A stretch of DNA of 64,000 bases from Chrysomallon squamiferum (lineage: Eukaryota > Animalia > Mollusca): NCBI GenBank assembly GCA_012295275.1, contig CM022674.1, positions 124,001-188,000 on the forward strand. Direction: 5' to 3'. This document shows positions 13,500-17,558 of the stretch, in pieces. Position 1 is the first letter of the stretch; every line of letters starts with the position of its first letter. Position numbers and translations under genes: made by a program. The notes beneath the pieces were generated by a model. That model was not told where the DNA came from, did not search any database, and saw only the letters and a list, made by a program, of their open reading frames with translations.

Positions 13500-16400
13500 G
13501 TAAGTATATTTTGGTTCAGTGTGTAGAACATAGCTATAATTATCATTATCCGGCTTTCAGAAATAAGTATCTGGCGTGAAAGAGAGTATATCGTTTTTTA
13601 AAAATATGTGATGGGTAAGACAATAAAAATTATATATATATATATATATCATCTCTCTTTCAAGCGTCAGAATATTTCATAACGTTTTGGCGCTCATTTT
13701 GTAAACAATTAAGATGTTTCACAAACTCTAGGGTGTGAAGAAAATGTTGGTGTTAGTGTTTTTACTAAACTGTGTGTGACAGAGAAAAACGTGGCACATT
13801 AAAGTCGTTTATCAAATATTTCTCATATAGAGAATAAAACTCTCTCTCTCTCTCTCTCTCTCTCTCTCTCTCTCTCTCTCTCTCTCTCTCTCTCTCTCTC
13901 TCTCTCTCTCTCTCTCTCTCTCTCTCTCTCTCTCTCTCGTGTTTAGTTTTGTTTTAATCTCCGTGTCTTTCTTTAGTTTTTTTTTAAATGGGACTATATT
14001 GGCTAACTGATTTTAAAAATTAAAATAATCTTTAATTTTCATTTTTATTACTATATTTTATTTTTTATTGTTCATTTGTTTGTGTGTTTGTTAAAAGGGA
14101 TCTGAGACATACAGAAATCGGCACCATGGAAACGATCTTCAACCTCGAAAGGGCTGGAGTATCCAGAGTAATTGGAATCCTATCTGGCCTGTAAGAAAGT
14201 ATATACTTTATAAAACTATGTGGTGGGTAAGACAGTAATCGGAATCCTATCTGGCCTGTAAGAAAGTATATACTTTATAAAACTATGTGGTGGGTAAGAC
14301 AGTAATCGGAATCCTATCTGGCCTGTAAGAAAGTATATACTTTATAAAACTATGTGGTGGGTAAGACAGTAATCGGAATCCTATCTGGCCTGTAAGAAAA
14401 TATATACTTTATAAAACTATGTGGTGGGTAAGACAGTAATCGGAATCCTATCTGGCCTGTAAGAAAGTATATCCTTTATAAAACTATGTGGTGGGTAAGA
14501 CAGTAATCGGAATCCTATCTGGCCTGTAAGAAAGTATATACTTTATAAAACTATGTGGTGGGTAAGACAGTAATCGGAATCCTATCTGGCCTGTAAGACA
14601 GTATATCCTTCATAAAAATATGTGGTGGGTAAGACAGTAATCGGAATCCTATCTGGCCTGTAAGAAAGTATATCCTTTATAAAACTATGTGGTGGGTAAG
14701 ACAGTAATCGGAATCCTATCTGGCCTGTAAGAAAGAATATCCTTTATAAAACTATGTGGTGGGTAAGACAGTAATCGGAATCCTATCTGGCCTGTAAGAA
14801 AGTATATCCTTTATAAAACTATGTGGTGGGTAAGACAGTAATCGGAATCCTATCTGGCCTGTAAGAAAGTATATCCTTTATAAAACTATGTGGTGGGTAA
14901 GACAGTAATGCCGATCTTTCGTGTATAGCTTTGTTTCAATCTGCGTGTCTTTCTTTATGCTTTTTTAAATGGCACTACATTGGCTAATTATCTTTAAAAA
15001 TTAAAATAATATATAATTTTAATTTATTTTAACATTTCTTTTTTATTATTATTTATTTACTTCTTGTTTTTTTGTTGTTTTGTTGTTGTTGTTTTTTTTT
15101 GTTAAAAGGTATATGACCAAAAAAAGCCAAACATACAAGAACCGTATGGAAGTCGGCGGAGGAACAAAATGTACAGTGTTCGTTATAGAAAACGGAATCG
15201 ACATATTAACATCTGGCCTGTAAGAAAGTATATCCTTTATAAAACTATGTGGTGGGTAAGACAGTAATCGACATATTAATATCTGGCCTGTAAGAAAGTA
15301 TATCCTTTATAAAACTATGTGGTGGGTAAGACAGTAATCGACATATTAATATCTGGCGTGTAAGAAAGTATATCCTTTATAAAAATATGTGGTGGGTAAG
15401 ACAGTAATGCCGATTATAAAAAATAAAAATAATGTACATGTATGTATCATCTCTCTTTCAAGCGTCAGAATATTTCATAACGTTTTGGCGCTCATTTTGT
15501 AAACAATTAAGATGTTTCACAAACTCTAGGGTGTGAAGAAAATGTTGGTGTTAGTGTTTTTACTAAACTGTGTGTGACAGAGAAAAACGTGGCACATTAA
15601 AGTCGTTTATCAAATATTTCTCATATAGAGAATAAAAAACTCTCTCTCTCTCTCTCTCTCTCTCTCTCTCTCTCTCTCTCTCTCTCTCTCTCTCTCTCTC
15701 TCTCTCTCTCTCTCTCTCTCTCTCTCTCTCTCTCTCTCTCTCTCTCTCTCTCTCTCTCTTTTCTGTGTAGTTTTTGTTTTGTTTTTTGTTTTAGTTTATT
15801 TATTTTTATCTTTGTTAAAAGGAAGCTCAGAGACACACGACAAGAAAACCAGAAGCGCACAGGGGCACATTCAGCCATCTTCACCATGCCATGTTCATAA
15901 TTAGGTGGTTGAATCGAAATTGTTATATCTACCCGGTAAGAAGCTATATCGTTTATAAAAATGTGTGATGGCTAAATATAAATATATGTATATGTATGTA
16001 TCATCTCTCTTTCAAACGTCAGAATATTTCATAACCTTTTGGCGTACTGCTCATTTTGTAAACAATTAAGATGTTTCACAAACTTGAAGTTTCTCATATA
16101 GAGAATACAAATTCTCTCTCTCTCTCTCTCTCTCTCTCTCTCTCTCTCTCTCTCTCTCTCTCTCTCTCTCTCTCTCTCTCTCTCTCTCTCTCTCTCTCTC
16201 TCTCTCGTGTTTAGTTTTGTTTTAATCTCCGTGTCTTTCTTTAGCTTTTCTTTAAATGGGACTATATTGGCTAACTGACTTTAAAAATTAATATAATATT
16301 TAATTTTAATTTATTTTAACATTTCTTTTTTATTATTATTTATTTACTTCTTGTTTTTTTTTTTTGTTGTTGTTTGTTTTTGTTTGTTAATAGGTATATG

Positions 16401-17558
16401 ACCAAAAAAATCCAAACATACAAGAACCGTATGGAAGTCAGCGGAGGAACAAAATATACAGTGTTCGTTATAGAAAACGGAATCGACAAATTAAAATCTG
16501 GCGTGTAAGAAAGTATATCCTTTATAAAACTATGTGGTGGGTAAGACAGTAATCGACATATTAATATCTGGCGTGTAAGAAAGTATATCCTTTATAAAAA
16601 TATGTGGTGGGTAAGACAGTAATGCCGATTATAAAAAATAAAAATAATGTACATGTATATATCATCTCTCTTTCAAGCGTCAGAATATTTCATAACGTTT
16701 TGGCGCTCATTTTGTAAGCAATTAAGATGTTTCACAAACTCTAGGGTGTGAAGAAAATGTTGTGTTAGTGTTTTTACTAAACTGTGTGTGACAGAGAAAA
16801 ACGTGGCACATTAAAGTCGTTTATCAAATATCATTAATATTTCTCATATAGAGAATAAATCTCTCTCTCTCTCTCTCTCTCTCTCTCTCTCTCTCTCTCT
16901 CTCTCTCTCTCTCTCTCTCTCTCTCTCTCTCTCTCTCTCTCGTGTTTAGTTTTGTTTTAATCTCCGTGTCTTTCTTTAGCTTTTTTTTAAATGGGACTAT
17001 ATTGGCTGACTGACTTTAAAAATTAAAATAATCTTTAATTTTCATTTTTATTACTATTTTTAATTTTTTATTGTTCATTTGTTTGTGTGTTTGTTAAAAG
17101 GGATCTGAGACATACAAGCCAACAATTCAAAGAGCGCACAGAAATCGGCAAAGACCGTATGGAAGTCAGCTCAGGAAGCGTACACATCATGTTCGACCTA
17201 GAAGACAGAATAGTAATATCTTCCATGTAAGAAAGTATATCCTTTGTAAAAATATGTGGTGGCTAACAGACTTTAAAAACTGATACAATTTAATTTTTAT
17301 TACTATATATTTTTTTGTGAATTAATTTAGAAAAATAAAATATTAATTTTTGTTTTTTAATTTTTTAATTTTAATTTTATTATTATTTTTTGTTCTCAGG
17401 AAAGCGAGTTAATGCATGGGGAGACTGATAGCAGGGGACTGCACTCTGATCAAGAAGGAACGGGGGGAGGTTTCAGCGGGAACCAGTCTAGTGGACTTTC
17501 TGGATTTCGAGGCAAAAACGCGAGCTCGAACACAAGCGCTAGTGAGACGAAGACCTAA
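13446..17558 (+). CDS. Novel secreted modular cationic (Arg/Lys/His-rich) protein, 7 exons, about 255 aa
   Basis: Exons 13446-13499, 14098-14190, 15109-15219, 15822-15935, 16394-16504, 17101-17226, 17400-17558. All introns are GT-AG and phase 0, there are no internal stops, and the gene has a signal peptide, TATA box and AATAAA (17610). No family recognised. Confidence 0.85.
14098..14190 (+). CDS. Secreted gene exon 2 (module A): GSETYRNRHHGNDLQPRKGWSIQSNWNPIWP
   Basis: ttgttaaaAG| ... |GTAAGA; 93 nt, phase 0-0. Confidence 0.8.
14170..14908 (+). repeat. 11-copy 67-nt tandem array duplicating the exon-2 donor site
   Basis: AATCGGAATCCTATCTGGCCT|GTAAGAAAGTATAT..TGTGGTGGGTAAGACAGT; donors at 14191+67k up to 14861. 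Confidence 0.95.
15109..15219 (+). CDS. Secreted gene exon 3 (module B): VYDQKKPNIQEPYGSRRRNKMYSVRYRKRNRHINIWP
   Basis: gttaaaAG| ... |GTAAGA; 111 nt, phase 0-0. Donor re-duplicated at 15290 and 15360. Confidence 0.8.
15822..15935 (+). CDS. Secreted gene exon 4 (module C): EAQRHTTRKPEAHRGTFSHLHHAMFIIRWLNRNCYIYP
   Basis: ttgttaaaAG| ... ccg|GTAAGA; 114 nt, phase 0-0. Confidence 0.8.
16394..16504 (+). CDS. Secreted gene exon 5 (module B'): VYDQKNPNIQEPYGSQRRNKIYSVRYRKRNRQIKIWR
   Basis: gttaatAG| ... |GTAAGA; 111 nt; recent duplicate of exon 3. Confidence 0.8.
17101..17226 (+). CDS. Secreted gene exon 6 (module A'): GSETYKPTIQRAHRNRQRPYGSQLRKRTHHVRPRRQNSNIFH
   Basis: ttgttaaaAG| ... |GTAAGA; 126 nt, phase 0-0. 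Confidence 0.8.
17400..17558 (+). CDS. Secreted gene exon 7: ESELMHGETDSRGLHSDQEGTGGGFSGNQSSGLSGFRGKNASSNTSASETKT*
   Basis: tgttctcAG| acceptor; GC-richer coding-like sequence; TAA at 17556-17558; three N-X-S sequons. Confidence 0.8.
   Translation, partial: ESELMHGETDSRGLHSDQEGTGGGFSGNQSSGLSGFRGKNASSNTSASETKT

Follow-up and report, generated by a model that had tools for sequence, protein, structure and literature searches.

The window analysed here is a stretch of 64,000 nucleotides (nt) from the vent snail Chrysomallon squamiferum (assembly GCA_012295275.1, contig CM022674.1, positions 124,001 to 188,000 of the forward strand). All coordinates below are those of the window. Its main subject is a gene on the plus strand, whose exons and introns recur as similar cassettes. 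The gene was modelled with seven exons and 255 amino acids in a single open frame that starts at the ATG at 13446. Frame 0 is the sole frame open through all seven predicted exons. The exon borders are all GT-AG and phase 0, and the five internal exons, called modules below, are each a multiple of 3 in length (93-126 bp, 31-42 residues). The parts of the gene model are as follows.

13391..13404, plus strand: TATA-like boxes (TATAAA, twice) 5' of the start codon, recognised by sequence and putative in function
13446..13499, plus strand: coding exon 1, an 18-residue hydrophobic leader and predicted signal peptide (by inspection); donor GTAAGT, phase 0
14098..14190, plus strand: exon 2, module 1, 31 codons; 5' end exon-6-like, 3' end exon-3-like
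15109..15219, plus strand: exon 3, module 2, 37 codons; a contig of its own in 4/4 runs
15822..15935, plus strand: exon 4, module 3, 38 codons, His-rich, the most divergent module
16394..16504, plus strand: exon 5, module 4, 37 codons, a recent paralogue of exon 3
17101..17226, plus strand: exon 6, module 5, 42 codons
17400..17558, plus strand: coding part of exon 7, the 52-residue tail, then the stop
17610..17615, plus strand: AATAAA, by its sequence a likely polyadenylation signal

The gene is predicted to encode a secreted, strongly cationic orphan protein. The predicted product consists of the 18-residue hydrophobic leader, judged to be a signal peptide by inspection, followed by 185 module residues and a 52-residue acidic tail. 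The module part has an isoelectric point of 11.5, with 43 Lys and Arg against 9 Asp and Glu, and contains 12 His and 13 Tyr. One Cys is present in the 237 residues of the predicted mature protein. The modules hold 13 overlapping dibasic positions, and RYRKR occurs twice. The tail encoded by exon 7 is rich in Ser and Gly and carries three N-glycosylation sequons. Judged from composition, the product is probably disordered, and cleavage at the dibasic sites could yield short Arg/Lys-rich peptides. Net-positive, Cys-poor segments with basic sites behind a predicted leader are what is looked for in linear cationic antimicrobial peptides, and all of these were found. A surface or mucus peptide acting on microbes would be the likeliest role by composition, a tentative choice. 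A matrix or adhesive protein comes second as a possible role, and a reproductive protein seems unlikely.

One ancestral intron, made up of a donor part, block D, a (CT)n tract and block U, recurs in all six introns, either entire or with deletions. It is complete in introns 1 and 5. Block D is internally deleted in intron 4, and the acceptor side of intron 3 is short. Introns 2 and 6 both lack D and (CT)n, and in intron 6 the beginning of U is missing too. The copies are listed here.

13648..13836, plus strand: block D of intron 1; 0/189 differences from intron 3
13840..13938, plus strand: (CT)n tract of intron 1
13939..14097, plus strand: block U (acceptor side) of intron 1
14921..15108, plus strand: block U of intron 2, the upstream flank of exon 3; no D or (CT)n; the most divergent U copy
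15446..15634, plus strand: block D of intron 3
15640..15759, plus strand: (CT)n tract of intron 3
16000..16108, plus strand: block D of intron 4, internally deleted; 2/103 substitutions and 4 indel events against intron 3
16113..16206, plus strand: (CT)n tract of intron 4
16207..16393, plus strand: block U of intron 4, the upstream flank of exon 5; 16/185 against the intron 2 copy
16661..16858, plus strand: block D of intron 5
16860..16941, plus strand: (CT)n tract of intron 5
16942..17100, plus strand: block U of intron 5; 5/159 against the intron 1 copy

Block D was nearly uniform among the introns that retain it. It differed at 0/189 positions between introns 1 and 3, at 1/188 between introns 1 and 5, and at 2/103 between introns 4 and 3. 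Across the four introns it is 98-100% identical (0-3/80) beside exons that are far apart. The donor-side 40 nt of introns sharing block D differed at 6/39 and 7/40 positions (p = 2e-5 and 0.006), and exons 3 and 6 differed at 35 of 105 aligned sites. Block D is much younger than its cassettes, and therefore it cannot date the duplication of exons 3 and 5. Where block U still has a neighbouring (CT)n tract, its copies are separated by 2-3 differences in 82 nt; the tract-less copy in intron 2 shows 9-12 in about 81. This pattern fits a putative microsatellite-linked gene conversion.

In 3/3 runs of the organism, contigs over block D had about 2-4 times the depth of single-copy pieces, depth being a rough guide. 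A dispersed transposon or other high-copy element was rejected because of contig depth and loose ends. Two variants of block D in intron 5, at 16718 and 16761, were unseen in the contigs of 3/3 runs of the organism. Either assembly dropped these variants, or block D is yet more uniform than it looks in the window. Exon 2 looks chimeric: its first 16 nt and the entire upstream intron match the exon 6 cassette, and its last codons and donor match those of exon 3.

Exons 3 (15109-15219) and 5 (16394-16504), of 111 nt each, differ by six substitutions (5.4%). An earlier note on this DNA had listed the codon pairs as AAG/AAT, CGG/CAG, ATG/ATA, CAT/CAA, AAC/AAA and CCT/CGT with no synonymous change, and each of them was borne out in frame 0. 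Nonsynonymous sites amount to 75-86 per 100-111 sites (86.2 to 81.4 of 111 for kappa 1 to 4). Under neutrality, six of six changes would be nonsynonymous with P = 0.155-0.219, and the note was right that six changes are not statistically decisive. The count is ordinary and, taken alone, weak evidence of selection. A seventh difference, equivalent to 15161 (AGG to AAG, R/K), was present in the exon-3-type contig of all six runs, of eight, that have such a contig; the other two, X6 and X10 (another organism), gave no contig at this site. With it, seven of seven differences are nonsynonymous (P = 0.12-0.17). At 15161 the window has the exon 5 base, either as a different allele or through a consensus error. 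Beyond this site the run contigs showed no additional exon alleles; contigs drop rare variants.

The two cassettes were aligned over 640 columns, which contain 24 substitutions; 22 fall before or within the exon and 2 beyond it, an uneven spread along the cassette by run tests (p = 0.028 and 0.005). Within the exon the final difference is at 15218, 2 nt short of the donor, and 2 more follow in about 345 columns. In the downstream intron, 0/46 positions differ after the donor, and 2/300 substitutions with 3 indel events come next (2/346 in all). This indicates a mosaic structure: divergence runs from 14921 through the exon, and past the donor the cassettes are near-identical. The earlier note had called the flanking introns near-identical, which holds downstream and does not hold upstream, where 16/185 positions differ. 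Within the upstream flank, the distal part differs at 11/93; the proximal 92 nt hold five differences, all within the T/G-rich tract and acceptor, and a stretch of 60 nt at 15014-15073 is identical. On formal alignment, intron divergence was no lower than that of the exon upstream (p = 0.37 for the entire flank) and was lower downstream (p = 0.003). Against both flanks together the exon gave p = 0.28, and against the downstream flank plus the proximal 92 nt upstream (7/438) it gave p = 0.030, or 0.011 with the seventh difference. The outcome of the exon-versus-intron comparison depends on the flank chosen.

All five modules were then considered together. The nonsynonymous rate (dN) exceeded the synonymous rate (dS) in 10/10 module pairs in frame 0; these pairs are not independent. 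The ratio omega estimated with IQ-TREE over the five modules was 2.19 under the GY codon model (p = 0.107 against omega 1) and 2.82 under the MG model (p = 0.028). When three pairs, which share sequences, were pooled, nonsynonymous sites differed at 51/208 and synonymous sites at 8/68 (p = 0.027). The data give modest, borderline support to selection favouring amino-acid change on the modules, and no sign of purifying selection. Diversifying selection, as claimed in the earlier note, remains plausible through the gene-wide dN/dS of 2.2-2.8 and the homogenised tract that ends at the exon 3/5 donor. The two arguments originally offered for it are weak. The intron argument is so because the flank chosen is homogenised across four introns and cannot date the duplication.

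Copies of exon ends with donor sites, referred to as decoys, lie in the introns behind exons 2, 3 and 5, and a related relic lies in intron 1.

13561..13617, plus strand: relic exon end with a dead donor (GA for GT) in intron 1, likely the left edge of a duplicated cassette
14167..14909, plus strand: a 67-nt unit repeated 11 times (exon 2 end, donor, spacer), with ten non-coding decoy donors
15196..15408, plus strand: a 70-nt unit repeated 3 times (exon 3 end plus two decoys at 15266 and 15336)
16551..16620, plus strand: decoy following exon 5, with the same sequence as 15336-15405, the last decoy behind exon 3

The decoy behind exon 5 had been said to keep the exon 3 sequence (16551-16574) where exon 5 itself has changed. 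This is true at the H/Q site only. At the N/K site the decoy has AAT, which is the codon of neither exon, and at the P/R site it agrees with exon 5 (CGT). The T at the N/K site is common to all three decoys, the intron 1 relic and exons 2, 4 and 6. The AAC of exon 3 is therefore likely a derived synonymous change (AAT to AAC) that is masked in the pairwise comparison. At the P/R site, CGT is found in exon 5, the decoy behind it, the last decoy behind exon 3 and the relic. Since this state is also present in non-coding units, it likely entered exon 5 by recombination with one of them.

Use of the decoy donors as coding extensions was rejected, as translation continued past the donor into any decoy array ends at a stop after 15 codons. 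The ten non-coding copies of the 67-nt array are invariant over the exon-like part, from which the coding copy departs at a single nonsynonymous base (TGG vs CGG). The depth of this array relative to the exon contigs varies among runs from about 5 to 25 times, perhaps through copy-number variation. The first 17 nt of the relic (13561-13577) would give access to the +1 frame of exons 2-6, which is protein-like in composition. An ancestral frameshift is conceivable. Position-wise mismatch counts did not separate frame 0 from the +1 frame.

Homologues and folds were searched for in both frames. The frame 0 module profile gave 22 candidates, none at E<=1, and the +1 frame profile gave 341 candidates and no homologue. 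A profile search of 1.84 billion representative sequences returned 1 match (P0001, E 8.6e-5). It was rejected as a homologue and put down to chance: it is a singleton without a leader and has only a thrice-repeated six-residue motif in common with the query. Pfam matched 0/10 exon translations, and neither the +1 reading of exon 7 nor the read-through of exon 1. A BRICHOS-like precursor in the +1 frame, suspected from a by-eye resemblance to such proteins, was dropped, the last two Pfam searches giving it no support. The +1 frame query had 0 matches among PDB sequences, and the +1 frame of exon 6 had no usable match in the ESM Atlas. AlphaFold gave no fold for exon 6 in either frame (predicted local distance difference test scores 62.2 and 51.7; predicted template modelling scores 0.12 and 0.16). 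No exact match to a 24-nt pattern was found in JGI metagenomes. No orthologue of the locus came out of the profile searches, the JGI metagenomes or run X10. Three peptide motifs had no match in the literature searched, where unread supplements may still list the protein, and an intron/exon query of that literature likewise returned no paper. A motif search of a scleritome proteomics paper (PMC11871041) and part of its supplements gave 0 matches; its tables list accessions rather than sequences, so the protein may be recorded there. No described antimicrobial-peptide family was matched in the Pfam and profile searches.

Taking these results together, we put about even confidence in the explanation that this is a cassette-built orphan gene in which conversion beside (CT)n tracts likely overwrote the introns while selection likely keeps the exon modules different. 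The gene would have grown by tandem duplication of exon-plus-intron cassettes. Local gene conversion or unequal crossing-over beside the (CT)n tracts would have homogenised the intron copies and made the exon 3/5 mosaic, and the P/R state would have been brought into exon 5 from a decoy by the same kind of event. Selection for amino-acid change may have acted on the modules over the history of the gene (dN/dS about 2-3, borderline). Several points weigh against this explanation. The upstream intron has diverged more (8.6%) than exon 3/5 itself. The (CT)n link rests on one orphan copy of block U, for which the most cautious pair gives p = 0.079, and in intron 6, which has no tract either, the donor part differs from that of intron 3 at only 3/40. 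The codon alignment of the five modules was set by hand and left out 16/38 codons of exon 4 and 20/31 of exon 2, the GY model fails to reject omega = 1, and conversion can reportedly bias such selection tests, to go by the title of Casola and Hahn 2009. Once the hidden synonymous change is counted, six of seven changes in exons 3 and 5 are nonsynonymous (P = 0.42-0.51). These two exons have 11 basic residues each, with no charge shift evident.

Neutral or relaxed divergence under patchy conversion is a serious contender, though we lean away from it. The disordered modules would tolerate change, the six differences would be drift, and a recent conversion tract would have happened to end near the donor. 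It agrees with six of six at P 0.16-0.22, with an upstream flank whose divergence equals or exceeds that of the exon, with the hidden synonymous change at N/K and the P/R state in non-coding decoys, and with the GY result, under which omega = 1 stands. Under the MG model omega = 1 is rejected; dN exceeds dS in every frame 0 pair, non-independent as these are; the seventh difference, from the contigs, is again nonsynonymous; and the homogenised tract ends within 2 nt of the exon border, all of which speaks for selection instead. The model of the earlier note, one very recent duplication of the full cassette, dated by its introns and followed by a positively selected burst as in conotoxin genes, appears highly unlikely. 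The exon does exceed the downstream flank (6/111 vs 2/346, p = 0.003), also with the proximal upstream part added, and the 60-nt identity upstream agrees with a recent event. However, block D is equally identical between introns 1 and 3 and between introns 3 and 5, and is 98% identical beside the divergent exon 4, so it gives no date, and the distal upstream flank differs at 11/93.

Even less probable, in our view, is that the +1 frame, with phase-2 introns, was or still is the one used in the modules, the Arg-rich frame being a later frameshift or a decaying pseudogene, and that a lost 17-nt micro-exon at 13561-13577 switched the phase. Exons 2, 3, 5 and 6 are free of stops in the +1 frame, whose composition is more ordinary (purines at position 1 72%; rich in Thr, Ile, Gly, Ser, Lys and Glu). 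Between exons 4 and 6 this frame retains 9/17 residues, as against 5/20 in frame 0, and the relic is preceded by AG and has a fitting length. On the other side, stops interrupt this frame in exon 4 and where exon 7 begins, it is unreachable from the ATG, and the relic has an in-frame TAA and a dead donor. Its omega of 0.88-1.15 gives no sign of constraint, the +1 frame searches found no homologue or fold, and the six exon 3/5 differences are nonsynonymous there too (five computed, and one that the intron splits worked out directly from the sequence). The least credible alternative, which we regard as very improbable, is an assembly artefact, in which exons 3 and 5 would be two haplotypes or a mis-assembly and the intron identity would come from consensus polishing. 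Some consensus error or allelic difference does exist, because the window disagrees with the contigs at 15161, where it leans toward exon 5, and at 16718 and 16761. Yet both exon versions were recovered as separate contigs of similar depth in 4/4 runs (28.5 vs 28.4 in X7, the run not marked as a possible source of this DNA; the other three are so marked), and therefore the duplication is not an artefact. The block D copies also collapse into shared contigs, which places their identity in the read data. Run X10, from another organism, gave nothing at 80% likeness, which is no proof of absence.

A bolder form of the preferred explanation, conceivable but unlikely, extends it to a class of genes. 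Vent snails would have undescribed polyprotein genes in which each exon is a separately released cationic peptide that manages surface microbes or symbionts. Microsatellite-anchored conversion would keep the introns recombinogenic, so that modules duplicate and splice into chimeras such as exon 2; decoys would feed variants to the exons, and positive selection would keep the peptides different. 

Independently of this bolder form, the gene comes from a family of symbiont-bearing vent snails, and the product is an orphan modular cationic protein, probably secreted. If the modules were released peptides under selection, the gene would be a candidate for the host side of the symbiosis.

The neighbourhood of the gene offers usable synteny anchors, namely an SLC6 transporter (Pfam SNF) at 22619-33704 on the plus strand and EMC1 (Pfam EMC1_C) at 35866-54422 on the minus strand. 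An EMC1 exon in the window is 97% identical to that of Gigantopelta aegis, 82% to Haliotis and 74% to Littorina, which sets the snail near Gigantopelta and suggests a peltospirid from vents. At 1569-1768, a 42-nt unit present in 4.7 copies repeats the splice acceptor and first bases of the last exon of a UBA-domain gene (Pfam UBA), which resembles the end of an ACK1-type kinase. Like the decoy-donor arrays, it consists of a splice site copied in tandem, here in a second gene. A satellite of an 18-nt unit in 91 copies lies at 11124-12732, about 700 nt upstream of the start codon. Broken reading frames at 9142-9540 resemble a retroelement reverse transcriptase fragment and may be one. At 8306-8325, 5 kb upstream, 20 nt match the end of exon 1 at 19/20 positions, probably by chance.

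Conotoxin genes, as described in PMC3862624, are built of 2-3 exons, with the mature peptide in one of them; they show a superfamily signal sequence and cysteine frameworks, and their diversity arises between gene copies. The likeness to that description lies in a secreted gastropod precursor, conserved introns with simple repeats and faster-changing peptide exons. The present gene, by contrast, comes from a snail that is not a cone snail; it has seven exons and a single cysteine, and its modules all lie in one gene. Membership fails on cysteines, exon number and taxon, and with this architecture the conotoxin analogy of the earlier note falls. Linear cationic antimicrobial peptide precursors of molluscs, such as the mussel myticalins, have a signal peptide, Arg/Lys-rich and Cys-poor segments, basic processing sites and an acidic tail. 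The layout of the snail precursor is alike, with no sequence match, and the likeness comes from composition only. A multi-exon module design is not known from myticalin-type precursors.

Other parallels are found in the way the introns and exons evolve. In a modular spider silk gene, as cited in PMC2576457, introns are more homogenised than exons, and intragenic exon-intron repeats evolve in concert. The silk exons cited there are long, of low complexity and under purifying selection, whereas the snail modules have dN at or above dS. In the primate red and green opsins, exon divergence is kept while the neighbouring intron is homogenised, according to the review by Fawcett and Innan (PMC3924837). 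Here, unlike the opsins, the copies are exons within one gene, the zone of low divergence is clear on the 3' side only, and there is no known functional residue. The snail locus illustrates a known trap, in which an intron homogenised by conversion makes the neighbouring exon look accelerated. The same contrast can also be a real mark of selection keeping the exons apart.

In architecture and in proposed mechanism the gene agrees with SmPoMuc of Schistosoma mansoni (PMC2576457). There, exon-plus-intron repeats of about 1 kb lie between GA/CT microsatellites, the intron parts are >93% identical while the exons differ, and the authors propose microsatellite-linked gene conversion plus selection. 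The snail gene likewise has tandem exons with flanking introns and four (CT)n tracts, in introns 1, 3, 4 and 5, lost in introns 2 and 6. Intron identity above 93% beside differing exons was found for block D (0-3/80) and block U (2-3/82), and not for the U copy of intron 2. The same paper describes a 27-bp exon in up to 20 copies in a multigene mucin family, as against five modules of 93-126 bp in one gene here. The window holds one cassette gene, and only two exon versions were found among the contigs at 85% or 80% likeness. The snail modules are cationic rather than mucin-like, and decoy donor arrays are a further difference. No sequence relationship to SmPoMuc was found or is implied. The gene works like the SmPoMuc and opsin systems and is a member of neither gene family. 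It is a new example, in an orphan gene, of the known pattern seen in SmPoMuc and in the opsin peak of divergence, and the locus has an internal control in the U copy that lost its (CT)n tract and is the most divergent.

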